From sequence record MT446388.1: DNA of 64,000 nucleotides, one strand, 5' to 3'. Within the stretch, counting starts at the first letter, position 1. Every line of letters begins with the position of its first letter. This DNA is from Escherichia virus TH10. Position numbers and translations under genes: made by a program. A model generated the notes under the pieces. That model had not been told where the DNA came from, made no database searches, and saw nothing but the letters and a program-made list of their open reading frames with translations. This document shows, in pieces, positions 2,400 through 63,715 of the stretch.

Positions 2400-2731
2400 T
2401 GGGAACATTAACTATTGATGGTAAGAATAAAATCCTCGCCACGCTAACCCCAACGACTATTATTTTACACAATGTAGACCCAACGGCAGACCCTACAGCA
2501 AATAAGGTTACTCAGCCAGTGGCTATTTATTTTTCTGAACCGGATAATGGCTTAATTACCTCAGAAGATACAGTTAATATTACTGTTCCAGCTTCTGCAA
2601 CGGTCTCACACTATAGCTTGTGGGATGCTAACGATAAATGCGTGGCAACTGGTGCTCTTAGCAAACCTCAATTCTTTGCTGAAGAAGGTATCTATGTTAT
2701 CTCTTCAGTCTCTGTAGATTTAAACAAATAG
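2399..2731 (+). CDS. hypothetical head-module protein
   Basis: ORF in structural operon with overlapping start/stop (TAATG). Confidence 0.45.
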   Translation: MGTLTIDGKNKILATLTPTTIILHNVDPTADPTANKVTQPVAIYFSEPDNGLITSEDTVNITVPASATVSHYSLWDANDKCVATGALSKPQFFAEEGIYVISSVSVDLNK

Positions 2732-2742
2732 GGTGAGTAAAA

Positions 2743-4089
2743 ATGAGTTCGAATATCTTCAGACTTGCTGATAGATTATTCAACCAACCTTTACTAGCCA
2801 CTGAATCATTAGCTCACTCAGCAGCAACTTATGTGAATAACAGATTGCTGGGTGATGTCCAAGCAGCAGTAAACTTTGATAAACCCAAAGGCGAAGCAAG
2901 AAGTCTTTTAAAAGTAAAAGATGACATTGCTATTATCCCTATTATGGGTGGTTTAACCCATCGTATGACATTCATTGATGCAATGTGTACAGGTGGATTA
3001 AGCTCTTATGAAGGTTTGCGTAGAGGCTTTGACGAAGCTTTAGCAGATGAGTCAATCAAGACTATTGTTCTGCACATCGATTCTGGTGGTGGTGAAGCTT
3101 CAGGTTGCTTTGAATTAGCACGTCACATTATGGCTTCAAGAGGCCAAAAGAAAATTATTGCCTATGTAGATGAGTTCGCTTGTTCCGCTGCATATGCTCT
3201 TGCATCTTCTGCTGAAGAAATTATTGCATCACCAGATGCAGATGTTGGTTCTATTGGTGTAATTATGGTTCATCAGGAATTAACTAAGGCATTTGAAAAG
3301 AATGGCGTAACAATTAACGTCATCAAAGCTGGTGAGTTTAAAGGTATGGGTTCACCATTCCAAGCACTCTCAGAAGAAAGCAAAGAAAGACTTCAAAAGA
3401 GAATTAATGATACCTACGCAACCTTTACAGGTTTTGTAGCCGAATCTCGTAATCTCTCTGAAGAAGCTGTAAAGAATACTGAGGCGAATGTTTATTCTGC
3501 TCAGGAAGCTCTTGAACTTGGTTTAATTAACTCAATCATGTCTCAAGATGATTTCTTAAATTACTTACAAGGTTCTGAAGAGGCTCCTGTAAGTTTAAAC
3601 GTTAACAATTCAGGTGAAGAAATGACTGAACAAGAAAAGCAAGAACTAGAAGCTTTGCGTCTTCAGGTTGCTCAAATGAAAGCTAAAGAACAGGAAGCTG
3701 CTTTGTCAGATTTGACTAATAAGATTTCTGCTTCTGCTGAAGCTTTTGGGTTTGATGCAAAAGAAGCTGCAACGACTATTTTAGGTGCTGGTCTTGATAA
3801 CCCTCTGAGCGTTCTGTTTATGAATGCTATGGAAGGTGCTAACCAGAAACTTAATGAAACTATCGCGTCCCATGCTTCTGCAATGGAAGAAAAAGAATCA
3901 GAAATTACCAAGCTGAAAGAAACTGCTGGTGCTGTTCTTGAACATTCCAACGCTATGGAAGAAATGGGTAATGACGGCGAAGCTGATTTGGTTGAAGAAG
4001 AAAAAGAACCAGCTAAGAATGCTTCCGAAGACACCGCTGAACAACGCAAACTGGCTCTCCAGAATGCTCTAAAATCTCTTATTAAATAA
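2743..4089 (+). CDS. prohead protease (S49/ClpP-like) fused to coiled-coil scaffold-like C-terminal domain
   Basis: IDSGGGEASG and SAAYALAS serine-peptidase motifs; C-terminal half Glu/Ala/Lys-rich helical repeats; lies between portal and capsid genes. Confidence 0.7.
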   Translation: MSSNIFRLADRLFNQPLLATESLAHSAATYVNNRLLGDVQAAVNFDKPKGEARSLLKVKDDIAIIPIMGGLTHRMTFIDAMCTGGLSSYEGLRRGFDEALADESIKTIVLHIDSGGGEASGCFELARHIMASRGQKKIIAYVDEFACSAAYALASSAEEIIASPDADVGSIGVIMVHQELTKAFEKNGVTINVIKAGEFKGMGSPFQALSEESKERLQKRINDTYATFTGFVAESRNLSEEAVKNTEANVYSAQEALELGLINSIMSQDDFLNYLQGSEEAPVSLNVNNSGEEMTEQEKQELEALRLQVAQMKAKEQEAALSDLTNKISASAEAFGFDAKEAATTILGAGLDNPLSVLFMNAMEGANQKLNETIASHASAMEEKESEITKLKETAGAVLEHSNAMEEMGNDGEADLVEEEKEPAKNASEDTAEQRKLALQNALKSLIK

Positions 4090-19302: not shown

Positions 19303-21660
19303 ATGGCAGATTACAAGTTGAGTGAATTAAACTCAATCGACACAATCCGTTCAGACGACCTTCTTCATGTCAGAGTTAAAAAGAGACCTGAAATGCTAGG
19401 TGATGAAGACCGTCGAATGACCTATCAAGACTTCTTAGCATCTTTTAAGCTTGAAAGATTTGTCCAGATTGCTGGTAGTACTATGACGGGTGACTTAGGG
19501 ATTGTTAAGTTACTCTATGGCGGTAAGGCAGTATTTGACCCAACAGATTCTTCTGAGATTAATATTGGGGATGTTTTAAAGACTTTTAAAATTAACGCAA
19601 ATGGCCTTAAACTAACTATTGCAGATGCTTCGAGGTCAGCAACTGTTTATCATACTCTGAATAAACCAAGTCCTAATGAGCTTGGGATGAGAACTAATGA
19701 AGAGAATGATGCAAGATACTCAAGATTGGCTGTAAAAAACACCTTTAGCAGTACTCAAGCTATTCTCTCTGATAATGAAGCCCTTATTATTAAGAATACC
19801 ACACAAGGTGCGCCAATCTACATTAGTTGCCAAGATGCAGATGGCACTCAAAGATGGTATCTTGGCAATGATGCTTTTAGTAGAGATAACCTTGTTATCA
19901 AAAATGTTAAATATGGTGTCTATTTAGCTCTTTTAGACGGCCTATTATCCGTGAACAAATCACTCCAGATTGTTGGTCAAGTTCGACCTTCTGATTGGGC
20001 TAACTTAGATGCTAGATACTTTACTCAGACAGTCGCTAATCAGAGATTTGCACAGCTAGCTGGTGATAACACCTTTAGGGGTATTAATAATTTTGTAGGT
20101 GAGTTCAAAATTACCAGAGATAATGCTGCGTTAGTTATTAAGAATGCCTCTAATGCAACCGGACTATACCTACTTGGGGTGAAGGCTGACGGTACAAGCA
20201 AATTCTACTTAGGGACTGATACTTCTGACTCTGTAGTTAATCTGCACAACTACAGCACAAGCACAACCATCTCTTTGTCAGATGTGATTAGTGCTACTAA
20301 GACTGTGAGAATCACTGGTCAAGTTCAACCTTCTGATTGGACTAACATTGACTCTAGATACGTTCCGGCAGGAACTTTGAGCAATCTTGCTAAACTCAGT
20401 GACATGAATACTTTTAGGTCTGCACAAATTATTACACAAAATGGTTCATTGTTGCGACTAAAAAACACTGTTCAGGATAATGAACTGTACCTTTCTGGTC
20501 ATAATGCTGATAATGCGAGAAGGTGGTACATCGGGACTGCTGATAGAGCAAACCCATCTAGATTCATTATCCACAATGATAAAACTGTGACCACTATTTT
20601 TATGGAAGATGACTTTTTGCTAAATAAAACTGTAAGGATTACTGGTCAAGTACAACCTTCTGACTTCTCTAACTTAGATGCTAGATACTATACCCAATCT
20701 GCCGCAAACGCAAGATATATGCTTGCAAGCATCACTGGCTCAGCTTCTGAAGCAGATGGCGGTGATGGTGTTGCATGGAATGCAAAAACAGGTCTCTATA
20801 AGGTTACTAACACAAGTGGCCAGTCCTCTCTTCTTGTGTATCACATGTTTTTGGGCACTAGTTCTACGCCATCTGCACAATTAAAGTTTAATTTTAAAAA
20901 TGGTGGGATGTGGTATAGAACAGCAAGAGATAGCTATGGTTTTGAGGCCAGTTGGTCTAAAGTTTACACAGATACTCAAAAACCAACCCCTTCAGAAATT
21001 GGTGCATATACTAAAGCCGAAACTGACCAGAAAATTGCAACAGCAATTAGTGACTCTACAGACCTTAATAAAATCTATCCAGTAGGTATTGTAACGTGGT
21101 TTAACAGTAATGTTGACCCTAATACAGCACTTCCTGGGTTAACTTGGACGTACCTTAACAATGGTGTTGGTAGGACTATCAGGATTGCAGCAGCAAATGG
21201 TTCAGATGTTGCTACAACTGGTGGTTCAGACTCTGTAACGTTGTCTGTTGGTAACTTACCATCACACACCCATAGTTTCTCTGCTACCACTTCATCTTTT
21301 GATTATGGTACAAAGAACACTAATAACACTGGTGCTCACACCCACTCTGTAAGTGGTACTGCTAACTCTGGTGGTGGACACGCACATAGAATCTCACAAG
21401 GTGACAACGCTAACGTACCATCTGGTCGTGTTGCTTCATCAAACTCTGCTCAAACGCACGTTGGTTGGACAGAAAGTGATGGTGTTCACACTCACTCTGT
21501 AAGTGGTTCTGCTGCATCTGCTGGGGGACATGCTCATTCTGTAGGTATTGGCGCTCACAGTCACACAGTTAGTGGTAACACTGGTGGTACAGGTTCTGGT
21601 TCAGCATTCAGTGTTACTAACCAGTTCTACAAGTTAATGGCTTGGGTAAGAACTGCTTAA
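19303..21660 (+). CDS. long tail fibre / receptor-binding protein with triplicated internal domain and C-terminal HxH domain
   Basis: Three copies of V(R/Q)ITGQVQPSDW(T/A)N(L/I)D(A/S)RY spaced ~110 aa; C-terminal GGSDSVTLSVGNLPSHTHSF..FDYGTKNTNNTGAHTHSVSG..GGHAHSVGIGAHSHTVSG paralogous to C-terminus of 18084..19256. Confidence 0.7.
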   Translation: MADYKLSELNSIDTIRSDDLLHVRVKKRPEMLGDEDRRMTYQDFLASFKLERFVQIAGSTMTGDLGIVKLLYGGKAVFDPTDSSEINIGDVLKTFKINANGLKLTIADASRSATVYHTLNKPSPNELGMRTNEENDARYSRLAVKNTFSSTQAILSDNEALIIKNTTQGAPIYISCQDADGTQRWYLGNDAFSRDNLVIKNVKYGVYLALLDGLLSVNKSLQIVGQVRPSDWANLDARYFTQTVANQRFAQLAGDNTFRGINNFVGEFKITRDNAALVIKNASNATGLYLLGVKADGTSKFYLGTDTSDSVVNLHNYSTSTTISLSDVISATKTVRITGQVQPSDWTNIDSRYVPAGTLSNLAKLSDMNTFRSAQIITQNGSLLRLKNTVQDNELYLSGHNADNARRWYIGTADRANPSRFIIHNDKTVTTIFMEDDFLLNKTVRITGQVQPSDFSNLDARYYTQSAANARYMLASITGSASEADGGDGVAWNAKTGLYKVTNTSGQSSLLVYHMFLGTSSTPSAQLKFNFKNGGMWYRTARDSYGFEASWSKVYTDTQKPTPSEIGAYTKAETDQKIATAISDSTDLNKIYPVGIVTWFNSNVDPNTALPGLTWTYLNNGVGRTIRIAAANGSDVATTGGSDSVTLSVGNLPSHTHSFSATTSSFDYGTKNTNNTGAHTHSVSGTANSGGGHAHRISQGDNANVPSGRVASSNSAQTHVGWTESDGVHTHSVSGSAASAGGHAHSVGIGAHSHTVSGNTGGTGSGSAFSVTNQFYKLMAWVRTA

Positions 21661-29357: not shown

Positions 29358-29618
29358 TCATCCATCAATAACAGTAGTGTGTGATTGACCATTTTTGCCA
29401 TATCTATAAGATGTTGTTGTTTGAGAGTTGGGGCATCTGACAACAACAATATCCCTGCTTATAGCATCACCATTGAGTTTGTAGATTTTGCAGTCTTGCA
29501 TCTCTGGAGGGAGGCTGTAAGAGGCATCTTTGTTTTCATAAGATGGGTTACAGCCAGCCAGAAAAATTACTCCAAGTGCAACCATTGCTTTCACACAACT
29601 CTTAACCTTATTGTTCAC
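29358..29618 (-). CDS. lipoprotein
   Basis: N-terminus MNNKVKSCVKAMVALGVIFLAGC has signal peptide ending in lipobox L-A-G-C. Confidence 0.55.
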   Translation of the reverse strand: MNNKVKSCVKAMVALGVIFLAGCNPSYENKDASYSLPPEMQDCKIYKLNGDAISRDIVVVRCPNSQTTTSYRYGKNGQSHTTVIDG

Positions 29619-46142: not shown

Positions 46143-46384
46143 TGACTTATGTGATTTACTCCAAAACTGGATGCCCTCAGTGTGAGACTGCAAAGAATTT
46201 TGCAAAAGCTCGTGGTATTGACCATGTTGTGAGAATGTTAGGGCAGGATTATGAACTGTCAGACCTGATGGATATTGCACAGATGCCAGTTCGTCAGATG
46301 CCATTCATCATGAAAACTGATGGACAAAACCTAAAACCTGTTGGAACGCTACAGAATTTTATGGCAGAGGTGAATAATGCTTAA
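46142..46384 (+). CDS. glutaredoxin-like protein (NrdH-type redoxin)
   Basis: 80 aa, N-terminal YSKTGCPQCETAK CxxC thioredoxin-fold motif; coupled to nrdB. Confidence 0.7.
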   Translation: MTYVIYSKTGCPQCETAKNFAKARGIDHVVRMLGQDYELSDLMDIAQMPVRQMPFIMKTDGQNLKPVGTLQNFMAEVNNA

Positions 46385-46583
46385 ACGCCTTTGGGAAGGT
46401 CTGGTTGTTGATGCACCAGCCATTGTGATTGGTATGCTGATTGTTAACCTATTTACTGATTTTGAACAAGGTTCATTGTTTGGGGCCATGTTACTATGGG
46501 TTATCTTTGAAATATTAGAGATACAGTTAGGCATCACTGAAAAACTAAGAAAACTCGTTTCGAAGTTTTCTAAAAAGATTTAA
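46377..46583 (+). CDS. small two-TM membrane protein
   Basis: 68 aa, two hydrophobic segments. Confidence 0.4.
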   Translation: MLKRLWEGLVVDAPAIVIGMLIVNLFTDFEQGSLFGAMLLWVIFEILEIQLGITEKLRKLVSKFSKKI

Positions 46584-49505: not shown

Positions 49506-49706
49506 ATGTTTAAAATATCAAAAACGTTGATATACATACTTCACATTCTAATCTTCTTTTTTGGAGTTAGTGTTATGGTATGGGGTTTTTCAGACCCACA
49601 ATGGAGTTTCGCATATCATGGTCAGATGGATTTATGGTCATGCTTCAAACCATTTTTAGGGTTAGCTATAGCATTCAGTGCATTACCAACTAAGGTGAAA
49701 TTATGA
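49506..49706 (+). CDS. small membrane protein
   Basis: 66 aa, two hydrophobic segments. Confidence 0.35.
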   Translation: MFKISKTLIYILHILIFFFGVSVMVWGFSDPQWSFAYHGQMDLWSCFKPFLGLAIAFSALPTKVKL

Positions 49707-51335: not shown

Positions 51336-51366
51336 AAGGGAACTGTAAAGGTTCCCTTTTTATTTT
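51336..51366 (+). terminator. rho-independent terminator
   Basis: gggaac-tgtaaag-gttccc-tttttatttt. Confidence 0.65.
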
Positions 51367-51375
51367 GGAGATGAT

Positions 51376-52162: not shown

Positions 52163-52173
52163 GAGACAAAACT

Positions 52174-53055: not shown

Positions 53056-53063
53056 GTAACAGT

Positions 53064-53555
53064 ATGAATAAGGGTTATTTTGAAAGATACCTAATATATG
53101 AACCAGATACAGGTTTATTAATTTGGAGAGTAACCCTTTGCAGTACCGCTATTGCTGGTAATGTGGCTGGCACAAGGTCTAAGAAGGGTTATACCCAAGT
53201 CCAGATAAATAAGAAGAGGTACTATGCACATAATATTGCATGGATTATGTCTGGAGGTGAGATACCAAGTGGATATGAGATAGACCACATAGACCTTGAT
53301 AAATCTAATAATAAGTTGGATAATTTAAGACTTAGCACAAAGTCACAAAATCAGAGGAATAGGGGTATATACAAGAATAATAAAACTGGTGTGAAGGGTG
53401 TAAGTTTTTGTAAACAAACAGGTCTTTACAAAGCAAGAGTCATGCTTTACCATAAAGAATACTTTTGTGGAAGATTTAAAACGGTAGAAGAAGCAAAAGA
53501 AGCTGTAATTAAAAAGCGAATAGAACTTCATGGTGAGTTTGCAAGACATAACTAA
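53064..53555 (+). CDS. HNH homing endonuclease with AP2-like C-terminal domain
   Basis: YEIDHIDLDKSNNKLDNLRLSTKSQN HNH motif; C-terminal EEAKEAVIKKRIELHGEFA shared with 30227..30742. Confidence 0.7.
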   Translation: MNKGYFERYLIYEPDTGLLIWRVTLCSTAIAGNVAGTRSKKGYTQVQINKKRYYAHNIAWIMSGGEIPSGYEIDHIDLDKSNNKLDNLRLSTKSQNQRNRGIYKNNKTGVKGVSFCKQTGLYKARVMLYHKEYFCGRFKTVEEAKEAVIKKRIELHGEFARHN

Positions 53556-53571
53556 GAGAGAGAGATAAAAT

Positions 53572-55353
53572 ATGAGTAAGTCACTTTACGCAGTACCAGC
53601 AGGTCTTAATGCAGATGCTTACAAGGCATCACATATATATCAGTATCCAGATGCTACGCAATATCTTATGTTGAACCTGACACCACGCAGTGATAAATGG
53701 TTTAACAGCCCCTTAGCAATTGACGGTGTAGTGGCTTTTGGTATTCAACGTTTTGTTAAAGATTACTTGATAGACCACTGGAATGCCACTTTCTTTGAAC
53801 GTGATAAAAGAGAAGCCATTGATGAAATCTTAGAAGTCATGAATGGTGTTCTGGGTAAAGATGCTATCGGTCGAGAGCATTGGGAAGCACTTCACGACTT
53901 AGGTTATCTACCAGTTGAAGTATACGCTGTAGAAGAAGGCACAGTTGTTCCAATGCGTGTCCCGATGATTGTCTTTCAGAACACTGTTTCAGGTTTTCAT
54001 TGGGTAGCAGGTTATCTGGAAGATGCTTTCTCTGCTGAAATTTGGAAGGCTTGCACCATTGCAACTATTGCATTGCATTACAAACGCATCTGTAAGAAGT
54101 GGGCTGACCTTACTTGTGACAATGACTTACATTTACCTTATCAGTGCCATGATTTTGCTATGCGTGGTATGTCCGGCTTTACTGATGACGCATTTAACGC
54201 TGTAGGTCACTTAACCAGCTTTAAAGGGACTGATAGCTTCCCTGCTGTATACACGGCTAAACGAATCTATGGACAGTCCTACCCAATCTCTGATATTGGT
54301 AGTTCTGTACCAGCCACTGAGCACTCTGTAATGTGTGCAAACATTGCTTGGGAAGGTGGTAATGAGTTGATTGAAGAAGAAAGACGCTTTAAAGGTGAGT
54401 TACAAACCTTCCGTCGTTTCTTAACAGAAACTTACCCAACAGGTATTGCAAGCATTGTTTCAGATACTTATAACTTCTGGAGAACTGTGTCAGAAATCTT
54501 ACCAGCACTCCGCAAAGAAATTATGGAACGTGACGGCAAACTGGTAATTCGTCCTGACTCTGGAGACCCTGTACATATTGTCACAGGTTATAAAGCAATC
54601 CACTTAGAGTGTGCTAAGAAGGCTTATTACGAACACCTAAGCAAGCTGGAAGCCAGTGACACAATGTTGAATGCTGTCCTGAACATGAAGCTTGAGAACA
54701 TCAACTATGGTATTGCTGGATGGCTACTGTCAGAAGGCTACGAGATGGTTGTTGACAGAGAAGACTTTGAAGTTGCTGATACAGTGATGTTGAAAAATGC
54801 TTATATGGTTGGTTCTGCAAACGTTGTAACACGTCCTGTAGCTGAGATTGATGGAGCTATTAAGACACTGTACAACATCTTTGGGGGAACTATTAACTCT
54901 AAAGGCTTTAAAGTACTGGATGAACACATTGGCCTTATTTATGGTGACTCTATCACACTGGAACGTGCAAACGAAATCCTGAAGCGTCTGTATGAAATGG
55001 GTTTTGCAAGCTCTAACGTAGTGTTTGGCGTAGGCTCTTACACTTACCAGTACATGACTCGTGACACCTTTGCATTTGCTGTTAAAGCAACTCTTGCAAG
55101 CATTGGTGGTAAAGAGATTATGCTTGCAAAAGACCCTAAAACAGATAGTGGTGTTAAGAAGTCTGCTTTTGGTGGTGTAGCACCTATGTGGGATGGTGAT
55201 AAGTTGAAAGCTGTAGATGGCTATGGATTCCAGAGCTTTGCAGATGTACTTGAACATCCAGCTTGTGCTCTACGTTTAGTCTTTAGTGACTCTGAGCAGT
55301 ACGGTTACACATCTCTTGGTGATATTCGAAATAATATTGACAAGCAGCTTTAA
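53572..55353 (+). CDS. nadV: nicotinamide phosphoribosyltransferase-like protein (NAMPT family)
   Basis: N-terminal NADAYKASHIYQYPDATQY block matching the NAMPT start; 593 aa, longer than typical NAMPT. Confidence 0.7.
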   Translation: MSKSLYAVPAGLNADAYKASHIYQYPDATQYLMLNLTPRSDKWFNSPLAIDGVVAFGIQRFVKDYLIDHWNATFFERDKREAIDEILEVMNGVLGKDAIGREHWEALHDLGYLPVEVYAVEEGTVVPMRVPMIVFQNTVSGFHWVAGYLEDAFSAEIWKACTIATIALHYKRICKKWADLTCDNDLHLPYQCHDFAMRGMSGFTDDAFNAVGHLTSFKGTDSFPAVYTAKRIYGQSYPISDIGSSVPATEHSVMCANIAWEGGNELIEEERRFKGELQTFRRFLTETYPTGIASIVSDTYNFWRTVSEILPALRKEIMERDGKLVIRPDSGDPVHIVTGYKAIHLECAKKAYYEHLSKLEASDTMLNAVLNMKLENINYGIAGWLLSEGYEMVVDREDFEVADTVMLKNAYMVGSANVVTRPVAEIDGAIKTLYNIFGGTINSKGFKVLDEHIGLIYGDSITLERANEILKRLYEMGFASSNVVFGVGSYTYQYMTRDTFAFAVKATLASIGGKEIMLAKDPKTDSGVKKSAFGGVAPMWDGDKLKAVDGYGFQSFADVLEHPACALRLVFSDSEQYGYTSLGDIRNNIDKQL

Positions 55354-55366
55354 AAGTATATGATAA

Positions 55367-55390
55367 GAGGCTCCTACGGGAGCCTTTTTA
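55367..55390 (+). terminator. rho-independent terminator
   Basis: aggctcc-tacg-ggagcct-ttttt. Confidence 0.7.
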
Positions 55391-55406
55391 ATTTCTGGAG
55401 AAGACT

Positions 55407-55742
55407 ATGAAAATCAAAGAAATGAACATCAACATTGTCTTAGAAGAACGTTGGGAGAACATCAAGAAGCCTGAAGATGGCCATAAGTTTCTTAACAAAA
55501 TTTTAGTAGCAGCTAAAGAAGAACTAACTGGCAAGGTCGCAGCAGCAATTACAATAAAGGTCTGTGTAAAAGGTCTTCCAGATAATCACCAATTTGCACT
55601 TGACGAGTTTAAAGAAAGCTTCTACAATCCAAACAAACAGATGCTTGAAAGTAACTTTGCAGTGTCTACAAGTATCGTCCATGACAGAAGCTTTATCCTT
55701 TACAAGAATATGAGAGGTGAGTCATGCAAGCATATTGGATAG
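55407..55742 (+). CDS. hypothetical protein
   Basis: 111-aa ORF. Confidence 0.45.
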   Translation: MKIKEMNINIVLEERWENIKKPEDGHKFLNKILVAAKEELTGKVAAAITIKVCVKGLPDNHQFALDEFKESFYNPNKQMLESNFAVSTSIVHDRSFILYKNMRGESCKHIG

Positions 55743-55900
55743 AAATTTTACTGTCACTTGGTAGTGTAGCAGTTCTTGTTTATCTTCTTTGTAAGTACTT
55801 TGCAGAACACAAGAAGTGTGACTACTGTAACGGAGAAGGGTATACAAGAGCAGGTTGTTGCCCTATGTGTGGTGGTTCTGGTAAAATGTTTAATAAGTAA
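55724..55900 (+). CDS. small membrane-anchored zinc-ribbon protein (58 aa, absent from ORF track)
   Basis: ATG 55724 to TAA 55898-55900; MQAYWIEILLSLGSVAVLVYLLCKYFAEHKKCDYCNGEGYTRAGCCPMCGGSGKMFNK: one TM segment plus CxxC...CxxC. Confidence 0.35.
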   Translation: MQAYWIEILLSLGSVAVLVYLLCKYFAEHKKCDYCNGEGYTRAGCCPMCGGSGKMFNK

Positions 55901-55928
55901 TTTAACAGTAAACTAAGAGGAAAGTATT

Positions 55929-58295
55929 ATGCGCATGGTAAATGACCACGCAGAAGTGATTAAGAGTTCAACTTCTTTAGAGACGTCTCAAGCACAGATT
56001 ACAATGACACCTGAAATGTTCAGCCTTTTGAGTTCTGGTGTATATACCTTTAAAGAAAGGGCAGTGATTCGTGAACTGTCATGTAACGCAGTAGATGCTC
56101 AGAAAGAAGCTGGAAAAGAGAATATCCCGTTCCATGTGCATTTACCTACTCGTTTTGAACCTTACTTTGAAGTCCGTGATTTTGGAACTGGATTGACTCA
56201 TGATAAAGTTATGAGTTTGTACCTAAACTACGGGGCTTCTACGAAGAATGACTCTAATGACTACATTGGTGCAATGGGTATCGGCTCAAAATCACCATTT
56301 GCAATTGCTCAGTCATTCACAGTGTCTAGCTATGTTGACGGTGTTGTTAATAAGTACTCTGTTTATCTTGAGAATGGTATCCCTCAAGTAACTAAACTGA
56401 CCACTAACCCAACAAAAGAACCTAATGGTTTAGCTGTACGTGTGGCAGTTGCTGACCACCGTATTTCAAAGTTCTTTGAAGAGGCTGGTAATGTATACTC
56501 ATACTTTGCTGTAAAACCAGAAAGTAATATTGATTACGACGATGTATTAGCAGATATGAACGTCATTGCCCGTGAAGAAGGTGTTTATGATGCCATGATT
56601 CATAAGCACAGCTGGCGTTCTAGTGATAACAGGACAGAGTTTAATGTGGTGATGGGTAACATTGCCTACCCTGTTAATATGGAAGCATTACTTGGCGATG
56701 ATTTCTTCAAAGTATTGCCAGAATTTTTCCGTAGGAGCGTAGACCTTGTAAACATCTACATGCCTATTGGTTCAGTTGCTATTGCAGCTTCTCGTGAAGC
56801 ATTGCAGATGAATGATACGACAAAAAATGTCATCATTGAGGCTACCAAAAAGATAACTGAAGCCATTACAAAGGATGTTATCAAAAAGATTAACAATCAG
56901 CCCACACTCATGGATGCTGCACAGGCTTATGCTGAGTTACGTTTGAACTCACGAGAGATGTTTAATGCTGTGTGTCCAAAGCTAGAGTGGGGAGGCATTA
57001 AGCTTGATTCTCTGGAAGAAGAATTGTTAAACATTCGTCGTGGAATTATCTACGCAGAAGACGGCTCAGTCATTTATGAACGTGACGGTAAAGGCAATAT
57101 TAAGGTTGATAGGAACGGGAACAATATCCCTAAAGTAGATTATCTTTATGACCCAGTTGCTTATGTCAAGTTCAACTCTTTAGAGAGTAAGATTCGTGCA
57201 ACAGCACTTTCCTACACTCAAGAGGCAAGCATGTTCAATATCTTTGGTGCAATGCGTAAAAGCCAAATTGAACAGTTTTTGTTCGTGATTAATGACCGTC
57301 GCAATAAAAACGGTACTGAGAAGACTGTAGGACGCAATCAAATTTTGCGTGGTGCATGTCGAGACTACGCCAGTGAGTCAAATCTGTTTCACAGATACAA
57401 TGGTATTGTCTTTGTATTCTCGACTGAAAAAGAGTTAGATGATTTAATCAATCTACACAAACTTGATAAAAGCTTGTTAAAGATTGTGAAGATGTCTGAT
57501 AAGGAACACCACTATCAGCGTAAAGAAGCTGTAAGGGGTGTTGTAAAACTCTGGAAAGCTGTTCCAGCAGAAGGTGTAGCTTCCTATAAAGAGGTTTCAG
57601 AGGACTTTGATACAATTGAAGAGCCTCAGCTTTACATTAAGGCAGTTGGCGACACAGTTGATGGCGAATGTTTTTGCTCATCTCCAGAAGATGTAGCCAA
57701 GTCAGTTGCTAATGTTACAGGGAAGACAGTCTATGTTTTCCGAAAAGCAAATTGGAAAAAGATACCAGAAGACTGGATTGAAGTAGATGAGAAACTCTTG
57801 AACGACAGCTTAACTGATGTTCATTGGATTAATCATAACAGATATATGACACGCATCTACATGAATGGTGTTCTTGACCTGACAAGCAGTTGGATTATTG
57901 CCAGAAACTTTACGTTCAATAACAGGAAGATTTCTCGTGGCTATTGCTATTCACGGGATACAAACAAAACTATCTTCCTAGAAGGAAATGAAGATGCTGT
58001 AGAGGCAATGTTTGGTAAAATCCAATACGTTGCTGCACCATTTGCATACACTTATACTATTAGTGTATTGAAAACTTTGAAAGACTGTCTTGACAATGAT
58101 ACAAAGCTTTACAAGAAAATTAAGAAAGCTGGTGACCGTATGGTCATTAAGGTGACAAACTACCTTTCAAAAAGAAAACAAGAAAACTTCTTGCTTTCTC
58201 ATTTGGATTGGAATAAAGTGTCACCCATCGAAGTGAGTAAGTTCTTAGGCTTTGATGTAAAATGTGTTCCAGAAGGGACTACAATTTACGATTAA
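55929..58295 (+). CDS. rIIA: rIIA-like protein with N-terminal GHKL-type ATPase domain
   Basis: N-box RELSCNAVDA, G1 box RDFGTGL, G2 box GAMGIGSKS; 788 aa. Confidence 0.6.
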   Translation: MRMVNDHAEVIKSSTSLETSQAQITMTPEMFSLLSSGVYTFKERAVIRELSCNAVDAQKEAGKENIPFHVHLPTRFEPYFEVRDFGTGLTHDKVMSLYLNYGASTKNDSNDYIGAMGIGSKSPFAIAQSFTVSSYVDGVVNKYSVYLENGIPQVTKLTTNPTKEPNGLAVRVAVADHRISKFFEEAGNVYSYFAVKPESNIDYDDVLADMNVIAREEGVYDAMIHKHSWRSSDNRTEFNVVMGNIAYPVNMEALLGDDFFKVLPEFFRRSVDLVNIYMPIGSVAIAASREALQMNDTTKNVIIEATKKITEAITKDVIKKINNQPTLMDAAQAYAELRLNSREMFNAVCPKLEWGGIKLDSLEEELLNIRRGIIYAEDGSVIYERDGKGNIKVDRNGNNIPKVDYLYDPVAYVKFNSLESKIRATALSYTQEASMFNIFGAMRKSQIEQFLFVINDRRNKNGTEKTVGRNQILRGACRDYASESNLFHRYNGIVFVFSTEKELDDLINLHKLDKSLLKIVKMSDKEHHYQRKEAVRGVVKLWKAVPAEGVASYKEVSEDFDTIEEPQLYIKAVGDTVDGECFCSSPEDVAKSVANVTGKTVYVFRKANWKKIPEDWIEVDEKLLNDSLTDVHWINHNRYMTRIYMNGVLDLTSSWIIARNFTFNNRKISRGYCYSRDTNKTIFLEGNEDAVEAMFGKIQYVAAPFAYTYTISVLKTLKDCLDNDTKLYKKIKKAGDRMVIKVTNYLSKRKQENFLLSHLDWNKVSPIEVSKFLGFDVKCVPEGTTIYD

Positions 58296-58301
58296 AGTGT
58301 T

Positions 58302-58331
58302 TGACAAGGGGCTTCAAAGCCCCTTAAAATG
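58302..58331 (+). promoter_or_regulatory. promoter-like element with hairpin in spacer (TTGACA-ggggcttcaaagcccc-TTAAAAT)
   Basis: ttgaca 58302-58307; 17-bp spacer is a perfect 6-bp-stem hairpin; -10-like ttaaaat. Confidence 0.4.
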
Positions 58332-58374
58332 GCATCACAAAATGATTTATTAACTAACAAGAGAGAGTAATAAG

Positions 58375-59484
58375 ATGACTACTAAAACTAAAGCACAGAT
58401 TGACGCAGAAATTTACAAACTGGTTAAAGAGGGCAAGCTGACTAAAACCGCTATTGCACAGAAATTTAACACCTCAACCCGTTCAGTCGGTCGTGCTGTA
58501 GAGCGTCATGAAGCAACCCTAAAAGGGAATAAAAAGGCAACTTCTACACCAGCTACGAAGACTTTGAAGCAAGTTGCTAAGACCTTTAAAAAGAAAGCTG
58601 GCAAACCAGTTGAAAAGGTCGTTAAAGACACTGTACAGAAAGCTCCAGTAAATAAACTGCACGAAGCTATGCAGAAAGATGACAAGATTGAGTACATGAT
58701 TACTGGTGATTCTGTAATTATGACTTATGGTTCAGAATCTGAAATTGTTGAGTCTACTCATCCGAACTATCAAGAGATTGTAGTTCATGTTGTGAAAGGT
58801 GAGTTCAAGAAAGCATTTGAACTGATGAACATTCGTAAGTCTATCGAAAACTTCACTCAGGGTGCTATCACAATCAAAGGCGACAAGCTATTCTACGGTG
58901 CTGTTGAGATGCGTTCTACTCTGGTTGACCGTATTCTTCACATGATGAAAACTGGTGATAAAGGTTTTGAACGACTTGTAATGTTCTTCGAAAAACTGAT
59001 GGAAAACCCATCTAAAGATTCTGTAGAACAACTTTGGGGATTTGTATCTCACCTTGATGTTGAAATTGATGAAGAAGGTTACATCATTGGTTGGAAGAAA
59101 GTCTCTACTCGTGAAGGTAAGCTGGTTGACTCCCACACCTACAAAGTTCCTAACGATTTGGGTAACATTGTAGAGATGCCACGTTGGATGGTTGATAATA
59201 ACCGTAACGTGACTTGCTCTCAAGGTCTTCATGTTGGTGCTTGGGATTATGTTCGTTGTTTCTCAGGTGATACAATTCTGAAGGTTCGTGTCCATCCACG
59301 AGACGTTGTATCCGTACCAACTGATTACAACGATATGAAGATGCGCTCGTCTCGTTATGAAGTTGCAGCAATCGTTGATAATCAACGTAAAGTGCTGAAA
59401 GCATGGGATGGCAAGACTGAAGCTTTACATGTCATCGTTGGTACTGCTGGAGAACTTATCTCCCAACGTAAACGTGAAATCTAA
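58375..59484 (+). CDS. rIIB-like protein (candidate, by synteny)
   Basis: 369-aa ORF immediately downstream of the rIIA-like gene; no motif I could confirm. Confidence 0.3.
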   Translation: MTTKTKAQIDAEIYKLVKEGKLTKTAIAQKFNTSTRSVGRAVERHEATLKGNKKATSTPATKTLKQVAKTFKKKAGKPVEKVVKDTVQKAPVNKLHEAMQKDDKIEYMITGDSVIMTYGSESEIVESTHPNYQEIVVHVVKGEFKKAFELMNIRKSIENFTQGAITIKGDKLFYGAVEMRSTLVDRILHMMKTGDKGFERLVMFFEKLMENPSKDSVEQLWGFVSHLDVEIDEEGYIIGWKKVSTREGKLVDSHTYKVPNDLGNIVEMPRWMVDNNRNVTCSQGLHVGAWDYVRCFSGDTILKVRVHPRDVVSVPTDYNDMKMRSSRYEVAAIVDNQRKVLKAWDGKTEALHVIVGTAGELISQRKREI

Positions 59485-59499
59485 TAAGTAATTTCTTAA

Positions 59500-59526
59500 A
59501 AGGCTGCTTCGGCGGCCTTTTTTATT
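59500..59526 (+). terminator. rho-independent terminator (UUCG tetraloop)
   Basis: ggctgc-ttcg-gcggcc-ttttttt. Confidence 0.7.
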
Positions 59527-59584
59527 TGTATTTTGTGCAGAGTGCTGTATAATTGTTGTCACGATAAACTAAACAGGAGAACCA

Positions 59585-60133
59585 ATGAAGAAATTGATTC
59601 TAGGTTTGTGCTTAATGTTTACAGCACACTTATCTTATGCAGTTGACTGCCCAGAGCTATCAATTAGCCAAAAAGTAAACATGTTAAAAGCTTACCAGTA
59701 TGGTGAGAATAACATGGGCAAAGGTTGGGGTATCACTCTAGCTGCTATAGCCTTACAAGAGTCAGAGTTAGGTCTGAAGGTAGAGAATAAAAAGACACAT
59801 GATTATGGTATTTTCCAGAATCACTTGAAGACTGTTGTAAAGCGTAACAAAATTAGCCCTAATGTGGCTAAAAAGAAACTCTTAAGAGACTTTGATTATG
59901 CTGCGAAGGAAACTCACAAAGAACTTGAGTTTTGGACAAAGGTGCATGGTCAGCCAAAGTCAAAGAAGACTTTACAAAAAGTTTTAGCATCATATAATGC
60001 TGGGTATTCGTACAAAATCCCTAAAGCTAAGAAATATTCTCAAGATGTCTATAACAATATGAAAGTGATTGCTCAATGTGAATTTGCAACAAACATTTCT
60101 AAGGTAAACCATGAAAAAATTAAGAAAGTCTGA
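59585..60133 (+). CDS. secreted lytic transglycosylase-like protein (SLT domain with signal peptide)
   Basis: Signal peptide MKKLILGLCLMFTAHLSYA; SLT-like blocks LQESELG, DYGIFQ, SYNAGYS. Confidence 0.5.
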   Translation: MKKLILGLCLMFTAHLSYAVDCPELSISQKVNMLKAYQYGENNMGKGWGITLAAIALQESELGLKVENKKTHDYGIFQNHLKTVVKRNKISPNVAKKKLLRDFDYAAKETHKELEFWTKVHGQPKSKKTLQKVLASYNAGYSYKIPKAKKYSQDVYNNMKVIAQCEFATNISKVNHEKIKKV

Positions 60134-60806
60134 TGAAGTACTGTGCCATGCTTATGACTTGCACCCTCATGAGTTAGGTCTTGATTCCTGTGTATGGACT
60201 CCAGAACAGTGCAGGGATTTTGAAGATACTGCAAGAGAAGTTGTATGTTCACTTGAAGAGTTCCATACATCAGAACCAATTGTGAGCGTTGTGGACAAAG
60301 AGACTGGACAAACTATAGGTGTAAGGCGTGATAGTTTAGTCATAGTCAATAAAGACCTTGTAGAAAAAGGTAACCTCATCTTAGCAGATATTGATGGCGT
60401 TCTTACAAATTTTAATCACGAAGATTGCTCAACGGAATTGACTGATGGGTCATTCTCACAGTACACTAATCTTCTTGATTCTGTAAGAGCAAAACCAACA
60501 TATGTTTTCAACATTATTGATGCAATTGCAAATCATGCAGCAGTTGGACTCTTGACAGCAAGAGGTGAATCTCAGAGAATACCTACTGAGATGTTTTTAA
60601 GGCACAATATAGAGCATGATTACTTGCTTTTTATGCGTGGTTTTGGAACTAACTCTATAAGTGCAGAAAGTTTGAAAGTGAGGATGATTCAGTCTTGCAT
60701 TCTTCCTTACTTTAATATAGTATGCTTTATAGAAGATACAGAGAATAATGTTCAGAAGGTAAACAGAGTCCTTCCACACATTAAAACTATGTTAGTTAAA
60801 CATTGA
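60111..60806 (+). CDS. HAD-superfamily phosphatase-like protein (candidate nucleotidase)
   Basis: HAD motif I LADIDGVLT; later LLTARGE and FIEDTENN. Confidence 0.4.
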   Translation: MKKLRKSDEVLCHAYDLHPHELGLDSCVWTPEQCRDFEDTAREVVCSLEEFHTSEPIVSVVDKETGQTIGVRRDSLVIVNKDLVEKGNLILADIDGVLTNFNHEDCSTELTDGSFSQYTNLLDSVRAKPTYVFNIIDAIANHAAVGLLTARGESQRIPTEMFLRHNIEHDYLLFMRGFGTNSISAESLKVRMIQSCILPYFNIVCFIEDTENNVQKVNRVLPHIKTMLVKH

Positions 60807-61282
60807 GAGAAGAACTTATGAACAATATCATTACGGTAGCACTGGACGATACGGCAAACAAATCTGAAGTAGTTCGTAAAATGATTCAAGGTAACTTTGA
60901 AGGTAAAATTTTCCGTGCTGTTAATGTAAAAGCTGACGGTAGCATTCGTGAATATCGTGCATTGTTGAACGTTAAGAAGCACGTAAAAGGTGTTGGTTCA
61001 ACGACTGCACACAAAGAAAACCTGATGACTATCTATGATATGGGTAAGGCTTCAGAGTTAGGTGCTGAAGGTATCGTTAAAGAAGGTGCTCCGTATCGCT
61101 CTTTCAATCTGGAAACTACTCTTATGCTTTCCTTTACAAGTGGTTCCAAAACAATCACTTATCTCTTTACTGATGCTGCAACGGTATCTGCTATTAAGGA
61201 TAGCACTGTCAAAGCTGGCGTAGTTGCTGCTGCAAAAGCTTCTTCGATGGCTGCGAATATCCTTGCTAAAGTCCTCGGTTAA
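60803..61282 (+). CDS. hypothetical protein
   Basis: 159-aa ORF followed by terminator. Confidence 0.45.
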   Translation: MREELMNNIITVALDDTANKSEVVRKMIQGNFEGKIFRAVNVKADGSIREYRALLNVKKHVKGVGSTTAHKENLMTIYDMGKASELGAEGIVKEGAPYRSFNLETTLMLSFTSGSKTITYLFTDAATVSAIKDSTVKAGVVAAAKASSMAANILAKVLG

Positions 61283-61292
61283 GGTTAAGATA

Positions 61293-61318
61293 CAGGCTCC
61301 TTCGGGAGCCTTTTTCAT
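61293..61318 (+). terminator. rho-independent terminator (UUCG tetraloop)
   Basis: aggctcc-ttcg-ggagcct-ttttc. Confidence 0.7.
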
Positions 61319-61334
61319 TTTAGGAGATTGTTAA

Positions 61335-61688
61335 ATGACATTTAAAGAGTTCTGTCAAGCTACTTTCATAATTGTTTTCTTAGTTGGGGCAGGTGTCTGG
61401 GGAGGATACTCTTACAGAGACTACCAAGTTGCTGAAACTGAGCTAAATAATGAGAAACTAATTAGTGTAGCTAAAGACGCTTATCAGGAAGGGTTAGTTA
61501 CACTGAGCACCAATTACAAAAATGATTTGAAAGATGTGCTTGCTAAGAATAAGCATACAAAAGAGGTACTAACATATGAAAAAACTAAGCCAGAGTTTTA
61601 TAATGTTTGTGTTACTGATAATTATGTCAGGGTGTTCAACGAACAAAGTGAACAGTACATTCAAAAACTCCCAAGTGAGCGAGAGTGA
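61335..61688 (+). CDS. i-spanin-like protein (Rz-like, N-terminal TM anchor)
   Basis: N-terminal TM FIIVFLVGAGVWGGY then soluble helical domain; contains embedded lipoprotein gene in another frame. Confidence 0.5.
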   Translation: MTFKEFCQATFIIVFLVGAGVWGGYSYRDYQVAETELNNEKLISVAKDAYQEGLVTLSTNYKNDLKDVLAKNKHTKEVLTYEKTKPEFYNVCVTDNYVRVFNEQSEQYIQKLPSERE

Positions 61689-61845
61689 TAAGTACACTCA
61701 AGAAGATTCAAGATTTACTATCAAAGGTAATACTGGTAGTGATGTGGCAGCAGCCCTTGAGTTCTATCGTGATGGATTTTACCAGTGCACAATCAAAGCT
61801 AATAACCTTATTGATATGATTTTATTAGGAAATAAACAGCAATGA
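61576..61845 (+). CDS. o-spanin-like outer-membrane lipoprotein (Rz1-like), overlapping the i-spanin gene
   Basis: MKKLSQSFIMFVLLIIMSGC signal peptide with lipobox-like MSGC; starts 113 bp inside 61335..61688 in a different frame. Confidence 0.5.
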   Translation: MKKLSQSFIMFVLLIIMSGCSTNKVNSTFKNSQVSESDKYTQEDSRFTIKGNTGSDVAAALEFYRDGFYQCTIKANNLIDMILLGNKQQ

Positions 61846-62111
61846 CAGAGAATGAAGATACTTTTTACGTAGAAGGTTACTTACTGTTACCGCGACCAAA
61901 AGAAACTTATATGCGAATTGACTTCATACCAACCATTATGGATAATGTGATGTGTCATATCTTTATGCAGGGTGTCACAGCGCAGCTTAAGCATGTTGGT
62001 AAAGAGTGCAAAATAAAGGTTGACACTCATCCAGAAATCAAAGAGAATCACTACACATGGTTCTTACCAGACTCTAAAGAAATCTTAGCAGTTCTTAAAA
62101 CGAGGAAGTAA
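61842..62111 (+). CDS. hypothetical protein
   Basis: 89-aa ORF, ATGA overlap with upstream gene. Confidence 0.4.
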   Translation: MTENEDTFYVEGYLLLPRPKETYMRIDFIPTIMDNVMCHIFMQGVTAQLKHVGKECKIKVDTHPEIKENHYTWFLPDSKEILAVLKTRK

Positions 62112-62113
62112 CT

Positions 62114-62437
62114 ATGCAGATTAACGGAAGAGACTTTGTAGCCGTTTACTACGAGAAAGGTAAAAAAGTTGGCGTAGCACAAGTATCTTATGGCAATGGT
62201 AAGTGGCTATATGGAACAATCGCAGTAGTAGGAACAAGAAGTGATACAAAAACCTTTAAAGATTGTGTTGACCTTCTTGAAGAATCCATCCAGAATCATT
62301 GGTGTCTGATATGGATGACTGACAATGAAGTGATAGAACGTTTCAAAAAGATTGATATCAACATTGACAGTATTGAGCATGTTGATTTATATGAGCTAAC
62401 TGAGAAGGTAAACTATGAAAGCTCTAGAAATAATTGA
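62114..62437 (+). CDS. hypothetical protein
   Basis: 107-aa ORF. Confidence 0.4.
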   Translation: MQINGRDFVAVYYEKGKKVGVAQVSYGNGKWLYGTIAVVGTRSDTKTFKDCVDLLEESIQNHWCLIWMTDNEVIERFKKIDINIDSIEHVDLYELTEKVNYESSRNN

Positions 62438-62642
62438 CAAAGATACTGGAGAAGTCGTATCTGCATGTGTTTTCATGAGCGATGACACAGTAATACCGTT
62501 TTACAATCTTGATGGTTTTAGTTTTACAGGTATAACTCCAGAAGAATACTTTGAAGACCTTACCTTTGCCAGAATTTCTATAGATACATTCTATAAATGC
62601 TTCTATGATGAAGGTAAAGAATTACGAGAAACTGAACTATAA
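62415..62642 (+). CDS. hypothetical protein
   Basis: 75-aa acidic ORF. Confidence 0.4.
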   Translation: MKALEIIDKDTGEVVSACVFMSDDTVIPFYNLDGFSFTGITPEEYFEDLTFARISIDTFYKCFYDEGKELRETEL

Positions 62643-62856: not shown

Positions 62857-63642
62857 ATGGGTATTGTAAAAATCATCAATGGTGATATCTTTAATGCTTT
62901 TGATAAAGGCAAGTTTGATGTCATTGGACACGGTTGCAACTGTATGAACTTAATGGGTGCAGGTATTGCTGACAAGATTTCTAAACTTTACCCAAAAGCC
63001 TATGAAACTGACACAGAAGTTTACTTGTACGCAGGTGGCATTGGACATAAACCCTGTGAGGATTTACTAGGTAATATCTCTGTAGCACGTTTAGAACAAG
63101 GCCGTATAGCTAACCTCTACACTCAGCTTAAAACTGGTAAAGATGCCAGATACAGTGCTTTAGAGTCATCTTTGAAGAAACTTAACAGGTACTGCGAAGT
63201 CAATCAGTTGAAGAAAGTTGGTTTACCTATGATTGGTGCAGGTATCGGTGGACTTGACCATCAAGCTGTCACCGTTATCATCAATCAGGTAATGAAAAGC
63301 GTAGACGTTTACTTATATGTCTATGAAGGTGAGATGTACCACAAGTTACGCTCAGGTTGGAAGAACTATTGTGAACCAGAATATTTTGCAGGTATAGCAG
63401 TGTTCACAGATAATGCAGTTACCCTCTTCAGACGTAGAAAGGGTAAGATACATCAAAGTAACCCTCCGGTTGAAAAGATGTCTCTAAGTAACGCTCTAGT
63501 TACCCGCCTGTCAAAGAGCAATAATCGTATTGCTGTGACATTCGGTAGTGATGCAGATGCTTACATTTATGCGAGAACTGATGAGAATGTTAAGGCAATC
63601 TTCTCATCACCAGAAGTTACCTTCTTAGACGCAAAGAACTAA
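62857..63642 (+). CDS. macro-domain protein (ADP-ribose binding/hydrolase candidate)
   Basis: INGDIF...FDVIGHGCNCMNLMGAGIADKI and later VGLPMIGAGIGGLD match the macro-domain NAAN..GGGV and PxISTG blocks. Confidence 0.5.
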   Translation: MGIVKIINGDIFNAFDKGKFDVIGHGCNCMNLMGAGIADKISKLYPKAYETDTEVYLYAGGIGHKPCEDLLGNISVARLEQGRIANLYTQLKTGKDARYSALESSLKKLNRYCEVNQLKKVGLPMIGAGIGGLDHQAVTVIINQVMKSVDVYLYVYEGEMYHKLRSGWKNYCEPEYFAGIAVFTDNAVTLFRRRKGKIHQSNPPVEKMSLSNALVTRLSKSNNRIAVTFGSDADAYIYARTDENVKAIFSSPEVTFLDAKN

Positions 63643-63715
63643 GAAACTGTGTAGAATATACACAATAGACTAAGCCTTTCTTATCTGGTAAATTTTTCAG
63701 GTAAGGGGGGCTTTT

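Follow-up and report, generated by a model that had tools for sequence, protein, structure and literature searches.

A 64,000-nucleotide (nt) stretch of the Escherichia virus TH10 genome (MT446388.1), hereafter called the window, encodes, just downstream of rIIB, a small SLT-like protein with a predicted signal peptide and, after two intervening genes, a membrane-anchored protein whose gene overlaps that of a lipoprotein. Judged by full-length similarity, the SLT-like protein corresponds in Felix O1-type phages to T4 Vs.1, and the anchored protein and the lipoprotein are, by sequence criteria, a real two-component spanin made up of an i-spanin in the inner and an o-spanin in the outer membrane. 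The explanation that we favor for the region as a whole, and that we regard as likely, is a Vs.1-type accessory periplasmic transglycosylase encoded near an overlapped two-component spanin. These assignments tidy the annotation of the locus: Felix O1-type phages have overlapped spanins, which had already been catalogued, and the "putative lysin" beside rIIB is the equivalent of T4 Vs.1 in these phages and not their endolysin. All of the open reading frames (ORFs) named in an initial annotation of the window, which was made from the sequence alone, were found where it had placed them (Table 1).

Table 1. Features of the Vs.1-like/spanin region and the two holin candidates, in window positions (TM, transmembrane; Glu, glutamic acid; Cys, cysteine)
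Feature	Position	Strand	Remarks
Holin candidate 1, 68 residues	46377..46583	+	Two hydrophobic segments, charged C terminus; phrog_4532 (function unassigned)
Holin candidate 2, 66 residues	49506..49706	+	Two hydrophobic segments; phrog_11929 "membrane protein"
Intrinsic terminator 3′ of rIIB	59498..59521	+	10-bp GC-rich stem and T-run; annotated also in wV8 and Mijalis
Candidate promoter	59548..59553	+	Perfect TATAAT, 31 nt 5′ of the SLT-like start
Vs.1-family GH23 lytic-transglycosylase-like protein, 182 residues	59585..60133	+	Felix O1 gp3 / wV8 gp3; small, basic
Predicted cleavable Sec signal peptide, MKKLILGLCLMFTAHLSYA	59585..59641	+	Hydropathy, −3/−1 rule
Codons E59-S60, predicted catalytic Glu in E-S motif	59759..59764	+	Family alignment; EtgA/goose lysozyme alignment
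Phosphatase-like gene	60111..60806	+	phrog_3970; HAD-type signature DIDGVLT at residue 93
gp5, function unassigned	60803..61282	+	phrog_2267; final gene before second terminator
Intrinsic terminator	61294..61311	+	7-bp stem with 5 GC pairs, T-run; annotated in wV8 and Mijalis
i-spanin, 117 residues	61335..61688	+	phrog_1152 "Rz-like spanin," E 2e-41; N-terminal TM helix; single conserved Cys92
o-spanin, 89 residues	61576..61845	+, +1 frame	Lipobox IMSG followed by Cys20 (61633..61635); conserved Cys71
Dual-coding overlap of i-spanin and o-spanin	61576..61688	+	113 nt

Full-Length Similarity Links the SLT-Like Protein to T4 Vs.1

The SLT-like protein falls into phrog_600 (E 1e-57), a family that carries the label "unknown function" in PHROGs. 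BLASTP aligned it over its full length with T2 Vs.1 at 31% identity (E 5e-16), and in the supplementary gene table of Whichard 2010 the nearest homolog of Felix O1 ORF3 is the Vs.1 protein of Aeh1. In addition to this homology, the T4/T2 Vs.1 proteins and the SLT-like protein are of nearly the same length (181 versus 182 residues), have an N-terminal signal peptide, and harbor E-S, GxFQ, and SYN.G motifs. There are also differences between them. In T4/T2, vs.1 is a conserved hypothetical early ORF with regB and vs as its neighbors, whereas the gene in the window stands between rIIB and a HAD phosphatase gene, and T2 Vs.1 lacks the Cys22/Cys165 pair of the Ounavirinae clade.

Our tblastn search detected the Vs.1 family in 2124 phage records, including T4-like Straboviridae (with hosts in Escherichia, Klebsiella, Aeromonas, Acinetobacter, and Vibrio), Ackermannviridae, and all Ounavirinae, and the features annotated as "vs.1" in T2, ime09, and phiAS4 underlie matches of this search. 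An exhaustive profile search gave 1270 clusters at 50% identity, whose members are typically 160–195 residues long and match from residue 1; the family has a median length of 179 residues and consists of a single domain. An N-terminal hydrophobic segment is present in 135 of the 147 top family representatives and a lipobox-like motif in only 7, and most of the representatives that lack the segment look like truncated gene calls. T2 Vs.1 itself passes the Pfam SLT cut-off, with 24.7 bits. One homolog is labeled "Campylobacter coli" (GCA_053226485.1, contig ACBEZJ010000004.1, 214.8 kb). A bacterial origin of this homolog was rejected, as the same contig carries a gene for chimallin, the shell protein of the phage nucleus, and the contig is probably a jumbo phage genome and not bacterial DNA. 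Several GenBank records name the Vs.1 homolog itself "endoribonuclease" or "RegB," which looks like an annotation error carried over from the neighboring T4 regB.

Motifs, Model, and Signal Features Point to a Secreted GH23 Enzyme

The SLT-like protein starts with MKKLILGLCLMFTAHLSYA, which is followed after the predicted cut by VDCPE. This N terminus contains a KK n-region, a hydrophobic core, and an S-x-A sequence directly before the cut, contains no lipobox, and has pLDDT (AlphaFold's per-residue confidence) values <50 at residues 1–19. In the family alignment, E59, G63, Q78, Y137, N138, G140, and Y151 are invariant and S60, G75, and S136 nearly so. The E-S, GxFQ, and SYNAG motifs and Y151 correspond to the set of family-1 lytic transglycosylases (E-S, GxxQ, (A/S)YNxG, and a tyrosine). 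The AlphaFold model built on the family alignment reached a pLDDT of 84.8, with residues 30–160 mostly >90 and with the signal peptide and the last 12 residues weak. Comparison of this model with solved structures by Foldseek gave probabilities of 1.00 to 3gxk, 3w6f, 8urn, and Cj0843, though with TM scores of only ~0.5, and the matched folds comprise g-type lysozyme, GH23 chitinase, EtgA, MltF, Campylobacter Slt, and phiKZ gp144. The best viral matches, with TM scores of ~0.7, are SLT-domain proteins of Aeromonas and Pseudoalteromonas phages. A search of solved structures with the single sequence matched none; the family profile alone reached EtgA (8urn, E 7e-4) and also goose lysozyme, with the E-S, GxxQ, and YNAG motifs aligned and E59 placed on the catalytic Glu of EtgA and on E73 of goose lysozyme. 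An NCBIfam search with five proteins returned nothing meaningful.

Collectively, these data indicate that the gene product is very probably a periplasmic GH23 murein-cleaving enzyme, its activity and location being what we infer from the motifs, the model, and the signal peptide. The initial annotation of an SLT-like protein with a cleavable signal peptide is borne out, as motifs, model, fold, and signal features agree, with a Pfam score below threshold that is weighed further on. Within GH23, sequence cannot tell transglycosylase from lysozyme chemistry.

The best profile match among solved structures, EtgA of the enteropathogenic Escherichia coli (EPEC) type III system, is likewise a small single-domain enzyme with a signal peptide. 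IagB, IpgF, VirB1, and P19, relatives of EtgA, are likewise "specialised" transglycosylases of secretion systems. Enzymes of the EtgA type make way locally for a machine that spans the envelope, a component of which activates them; in contrast, the SLT-like protein has no known partner of this kind. The Asp of the EtgA "YDIG" sequence recurs in the SLT-like protein as D74, but the Vs.1 family as a whole does not conserve it.

The Anchored Protein and the Lipoprotein Form an Overlapped Spanin Pair by Sequence Criteria

The i-spanin contains one hydrophobic stretch, at about residues 5–26, and is otherwise hydrophilic in hydropathy analysis. The TM helix spans residues 9–25 (nt 61359..61409), which agrees with the N-terminal anchor proposed initially, and the protein is predicted to have a type II topology with a periplasmic domain after the anchor. 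The o-spanin begins with MKKLSQSFIMFVLLIIMSG followed by CST, a signal-peptidase-II lipobox in which the residue at +2 is Ser and not Asp, so that sorting to the outer membrane is predicted. It belongs to phrog_4180, an unnamed family, and shows a weak match to another spanin family. A lipobox protein in another frame had been noted before, and it is indeed encoded in the +1 frame; the claim that the two genes are embedded did not hold. Only the 5′ part of the o-spanin gene lies within the i-spanin gene, whose stop it passes by 157 nt, and the architecture is that of the "overlapped" class. The i-spanin has 117 residues here versus 115 in wV8, Felix O1, and Moogle, because the TGA stop is changed to CGA and the frame runs on to the next TGA. 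This extension (61677..61688) amounts to two residues (…PSERE versus …PSK), and the same bases partly code for the o-spanin.

Selection was analyzed on a 511-nt gapless alignment from the i-spanin start to the o-spanin stop, which included the window, wV8, radambza, Mijalis (Mooglevirus), and SUSP1 (Suspvirus). The ratio of nonsynonymous to synonymous substitution rates (dN/dS) is 0.03–0.06 in the o-spanin frame of the part that codes only for the o-spanin and 0.05–0.14 in the part that codes only for the i-spanin. The o-spanin-only stretch contains 2 and 11 stops in its other two frames. Because of the low dN/dS and these stops, the lipoprotein frame is not a chance ORF. Within the overlap, nucleotide identity to Mooglevirus and Suspvirus rises to 0.89, versus 0.74 in the flanks, and changes that are synonymous in the i-spanin frame are nearly nil. 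The overlap displays the pattern expected of dual coding, and on this alignment both spanin frames are under purifying selection.

The initial annotation had made its spanin reading depend on conservation of the lipoprotein frame in relatives, and the frame is conserved in four Ounavirinae genera and in Kuravirus podophages (five genera, with the lipobox Cys kept). Erwinia Kolesnikvirus and ShigP1, a Kuravirus podophage, are two examples with an intact frame. Across the Ounavirinae and Kuravirus, the i-spanin has one periplasmic Cys, within EK..P.F.N.C...Y...FN, and the o-spanin has one within LE[FYW][YW].D.[YF]..C....N.L. The i-spanin/o-spanin interpretation is upheld by these in silico features together with the conservation of both frames. 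In the record of Shigella phage ShigP1 (PQ818763.1, locus 2679..2939), the homologous o-spanin is annotated from a late Met as a 57-residue protein that misses the signal. The frame in fact holds MRKLNQFFIMSALVMSMSA followed by C and would give an 86-residue lipoprotein with a 116-nt overlap.

With an o-spanin that starts in the +1 frame within the i-spanin gene and extends past its end, the arrangement resembles that of P2 LysB/LysC-type spanins and differs from lambda Rz/Rz1, which are embedded, and from T4 PseT.3/PseT.2, which are separated. In addition, the mature o-spanin here has one Cys and no proline and the i-spanin one periplasmic Cys, whereas lambda Rz1 is proline-rich and lambda Rz has two periplasmic Cys. 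The pair is already known, both in the literature and in databases. The supplements of Kongari 2018 code the spanins of Felix01, wV8, FO1a, FSL SP-010, and Moogle as "ovl," along with those of the P2-like phages WPhi and Fels-2, and its tables list a 115-residue i-spanin and an 89-residue o-spanin with a 107-nt overlap for these Felix O1-like phages, including Mushroom. Overlapping spanin genes are also described in the genome notes of Moogle and Mijalis; according to the former, the lysis genes are scattered, with no cassette. Both genes are annotated in many GenBank records of relatives.

Apart from this pair, neither the window nor the complete wV8 genome has a lipobox ORF with a membrane-anchored partner. 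A second predicted lipoprotein of 78 residues (29358..29594, minus strand; MKAMVALGVIFLAG followed by CNPS; phrog_902, function unassigned) equals wV8 gene 100 and sits in the replication gene cluster. It was considered as a unimolecular spanin or second spanin system and rejected, as it has no C-terminal membrane anchor and, in the window and wV8, no partner. It could be a superinfection-exclusion or receptor-masking protein.

Possible Roles of the Vs.1-Like Enzyme and the Spanin Pair

In the explanation that we favor, Sec export would bring the Vs.1-like protein to the periplasm without a holin and with its signal peptide cleaved. In that compartment E59, the one catalytic Glu of the protein, is predicted to cut the glycan strands of the sacculus. 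This cleavage would be limited or latent and would act from the periplasmic side, such that it pre-conditions or speeds wall breakdown at lysis. The lethal step would not be its own but that of a separate cytoplasmic endolysin of the T4-lysozyme type. The type II i-spanin and the lipoprotein o-spanin would join across the wall through their periplasmic C-terminal parts, and once the endolysin has removed the murein, the spanin complex would disrupt the outer membrane; we infer both the formation of this complex and its timing from the predicted topologies.

An accessory role is assigned to the Vs.1-like protein because phages of this type have a separate T4-lysozyme-type endolysin. In wV8 the enzyme is gp40 (20729..21193, opposite strand), encoded ~17 kb further on in the wV8 map and outside the window, and the Felix O1 equivalent, gp35, contains Phage_lysozyme and endolysin_autolysin domains. 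T4 likewise has a lysozyme-type endolysin, the product of gene e, besides Vs.1. Judged from these relatives, the SLT-like protein is not the main endolysin. The initial annotation had offered a Sec-exported endolysin or an accessory murein hydrolase; the latter is supported in silico, and the former is not, given the Phage_lysozyme endolysin of the relatives. That the accessory role is exercised at lysis is a plausible but tentative assignment, which we would not quite call probable. In reverse transcription PCR (RT-PCR) of Felix O1, ORFs 1, 3, 4, 6, and 35 fall into the class that peaks at 25 min, and because of this class the Vs.1-like gene, the i-spanin gene, and the lysin gene share a coarse timing class.

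Several observations weigh against this explanation. Mutants of T4 in gene e do not lyse even though vs.1 is present; an enzyme of the Vs.1 type is therefore insufficient for lysis, to which it may contribute little, or it may serve an unrelated purpose. The SLT-like gene lies among early/middle-type genes beside rIIB and not with late or lysis genes, and elsewhere too the neighbors of Vs.1 genes are not lysis genes (regB and vs in T2, alc in an Aeromonas phage, gp46 in Kuttervirus). The match of the SLT-like protein to Pfam SLT (PF01464) is weak and below the gathering cut-off (E 8e-4; 19.4 versus 21.3 bits), and GH23 is assigned in spite of this score because of the invariant motifs, the confident model and fold matches, and the profile alignment with EtgA and lysozyme. 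On Vs.1 function our literature search found only Nolan 2006, in which the SLT match is called "marginally significant" and "suggests some role in cell lysis," and no experiment on any Vs.1-family protein; nor did it find an experimental test of this spanin family. For the Felix01 ortholog of the i-spanin, the supplement of Kongari 2018 gives 66% helix and no predicted coiled coil. The mature o-spanin contains no proline, and similarity of the pair to the T4 spanins PseT.3 and PseT.2 was not detectable. The predicted spanin function is thus grounded in architecture and not in homology to a tested spanin.

The Vs.1-like enzyme might instead be active in the periplasm but remodel or trim the sacculus during the latent period and have no part in lysis, a possibility that we regard as somewhat unlikely. 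The purpose of such trimming could be cell enlargement, clearing of uncrosslinked glycan, hindrance of superinfecting phages, or an altered release of wall fragments. The early/middle-type neighborhoods in which the gene is found across several phage families, and not in lysis cassettes, fit this possibility, as does Sec export, which would put the enzyme at the wall long before lysis. Moreover, EtgA, which by profile is the nearest relative of solved structure, is a "specialised" transglycosylase whose openings in the wall are local and non-lytic. The family is kept in >2,000 genomes, and a full endolysin is already present in the lineages checked, Felixounavirus and, from gene e, T4. However, RT-PCR of Felix O1 assigns ORF3 to the 25-min class, together with the lysin and i-spanin genes, and the homolog in the marine Cobetia phage Carin-5 is overlapped by a gene for a holin-looking membrane protein.

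A second alternative to the accessory transglycosylase is a true signal-peptide endolysin that waits inactive in the periplasm until a holin triggers it. Lys44 of the Oenococcus phage fOg44 is a signal-peptide endolysin of this kind, held inactive and holin-triggered. The closest parallel in architecture is Lys of the Campylobacter Fletchervirus F352, which also combines a signal peptide with SLT (182 residues here versus 188) and is Sec-dependent, inert alone, and lytic with a co-expressed holin (Zampara 2020, PMC7692668). F352 also resembles the Felix O1-like phages in that its lysis genes are scattered and its spanins overlapped (PMC7692668). Some GenBank records call the gene in question "putative lysin." In contrast to the Vs.1-like protein, F352 Lys is the sole endolysin of its phage, and the Felix O1-like phages encode their canonical Phage_lysozyme endolysin elsewhere. 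To compare the two lineages, we used the genome of Fletchervirus NCTC12673, with 125 of its 135 kb taken in (all but 50001–59999). Its gp11 is a 188-residue signal-peptide SLT protein and the ortholog of F352 Lys. Apart from the signal peptide, neither tblastn nor hhalign related gp11 to the profile of the Vs.1 family. Both the Vs.1 family and gp11 reach the Pfam SLT model, so that they are related at the level of the SLT superfamily only. F352 Lys was accordingly rejected as a Vs.1-family member, its similarity being undetectable, and appears to be an analogue and not a relative close enough for function to be transferred. With the failure of T4 e mutants to lyse despite vs.1 also standing against it, a holin-triggered endolysin is improbable here.

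The spanin assignment, too, has an alternative, namely that the anchored protein and the lipoprotein are other envelope proteins, acting for instance in superinfection exclusion or receptor masking like T5 Llp and Cor. The lack of sequence similarity to the T4 spanins and of a predicted coiled coil (Kongari 2018) would suit such proteins, as would the position of the genes in a non-late region behind a terminator. However, the obligate overlapped pairing, the conserved Cys residues, and the C-terminal motifs persist across myoviruses of E. coli, Salmonella, Citrobacter, and Erwinia and in Kuravirus podophages, and these phages differ in hosts and receptors. In addition, no other spanin candidate was found in the genome, the other lipobox ORF having neither a partner nor a C-terminal anchor, and the T4 spanin genes similarly lie in an early region, beside pseT. 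A non-spanin function is thus very improbable.

Finally, the initial annotation had considered that the SLT-like protein could be an ejection protein of the virion, that is, a wall-piercing enzyme like T7 gp16 or PRD1 P7, which we hold to be exceedingly improbable: many phage SLT domains do belong to virion proteins, and PRD1 P7 and tape-measure/tail proteins are among the weaker fold matches, but a cleavable Sec signal peptide would export the protein from the cytoplasm, the site of virion assembly, the protein is one small domain with no structural fusion partner and is encoded outside the structural module, and ORF3 is absent from the 16 ORF products of the Felix O1 virion proteome (23, 36, 53–55, 57–59, 63, 64, 67–69, 73, 74, and 77; Whichard 2010).

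Vs.1-type enzymes occur in T4-like, Felix O1-like, and Vi1-like phages and in at least one jumbo phage that has a chimallin gene. More than 2,000 phage genomes keep a secreted, apparently catalytically competent transglycosylase, while Felixounavirus and T4 have a complete lysis system as well. A broader and rather unlikely proposition is that large virulent phages widely possess, in the Vs.1-type transglycosylases, a second murein enzyme that is Sec-exported well before lysis and whose conserved role is other than terminal wall destruction, for instance a controlled reshaping of the infected cell's sacculus. If true, they would constitute a new functional class of phage envelope effector. The family is present in T4 and in the easily handled Felix O1-like phages used for biocontrol, and its role bears on how the timing and efficiency of lysis are set in therapeutic phages.

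Holin Candidates and Small Membrane Proteins

The two-TM character that the initial annotation ascribed to two candidate holins is seen in both proteins, each of which has two hydrophobic segments, and, as it had also noted, no holin gene is adjacent to the SLT-like gene. The first candidate (46377..46583) is conserved in Felixounavirus, Mooglevirus, and Suspvirus and is never annotated as a holin. The second (49506..49706) is found at ≥80% identity only in Felixounavirus-type records and underlies gp117–gp119 of phage FO1a. By position, both fall among the small nrd-region membrane proteins named as possible holins in Whichard 2010; among relatives, neither candidate carries a holin annotation.

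Small membrane proteins are also encoded next to Vs.1 homologs of other phages. In Cobetia phage Carin-5 (locus 2989..3784) an 86-residue multi-pass membrane protein is encoded by a gene overlapping the Vs.1 homolog, and in Aeromonas phage Asswx_1 (locus 2986..3683) a gene for a 35-residue single-pass peptide follows the Vs.1-like gene. Both could be holin-like partners of the Vs.1 homologs. The two ORFs 3′ of the Asswx_1 homolog were examined as spanins and rejected, as they have neither a membrane anchor nor a lipobox.

Genome Context and Operon Layout

A megablast search with 59000..62500 matched 259 phage records, 246 of which cover the query. The closest are the Escherichia phages ECML-1 and wV8, with ~96% nucleotide identity, and the first 25 kb of the window is a structural module of the type found in the same phages. 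Because of the ~96% match and the shared structural module, the window is, by sequence, part of the genome of a Felixounavirus (Felix O1-like myovirus). Mapped onto wV8, it extends from ~32.5 kb, past the end of the linear map, to ~8 kb. The proteins of the region are up to 98–100% identical to deposited sequences. The order of the locus is rIIA (55929..58295), rIIB (58375..59484), and then the SLT-like/spanin region, which is colinear with wV8 genes 3–12. This is an rII-proximal, non-structural part of the genome that carries two envelope-directed functions, apart from the endolysin.

Intrinsic terminators delimit two units (Table 1), the third terminator lying at 63672..63713. The first unit consists of the Vs.1-like gene, a gene called "polynucleotide kinase" in relatives, and gp5; the second has the spanins first and a macro-domain "phosphatase" gene last. 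The TATAAT upstream of the SLT-like gene was read by eye and has no good −35 element, and a consensus scan gave it no score. The strong terminator at 61294..61311 abuts the ribosome-binding site of the i-spanin (61318..61337 region), which leaves no space for a promoter. Expression of the spanins therefore presumably depends on read-through of this terminator.

The "polynucleotide kinase" gene (60111..60806) overlaps the SLT-like gene by 23 nt. No P-loop was found in its product, its BLASTP match to T4 PseT was not significant, and it matches Pnk profiles in the phosphatase half only. The protein looks phosphatase-only from these comparisons, and its name probably over-reaches. In T4, where the order is alc, pseT.3, pseT.2, pseT.1, and pseT, the spanin genes are apart from the endolysin and holin genes; those of the window are similarly far from the endolysin gene and have a pnk-type gene beside them, as in T4. 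In sequence, the spanins and the "pnk" gene product of the window have no similarity to PseT.3, PseT.2, and PseT, and the parallel is one of placement only.

The macro-domain gene downstream of the spanin pair ("phosphatase" or Appr-1-p processing; 62857..63642, plus strand) has equivalents at related positions. A macro-domain gene lies directly 3′ of the spanins in Erwinia Kolesnikvirus (locus 2995..3777) and in Kuravirus (locus 2939..3379), and in T2 the macro-type gene tk.4 is found two genes past vs.1.

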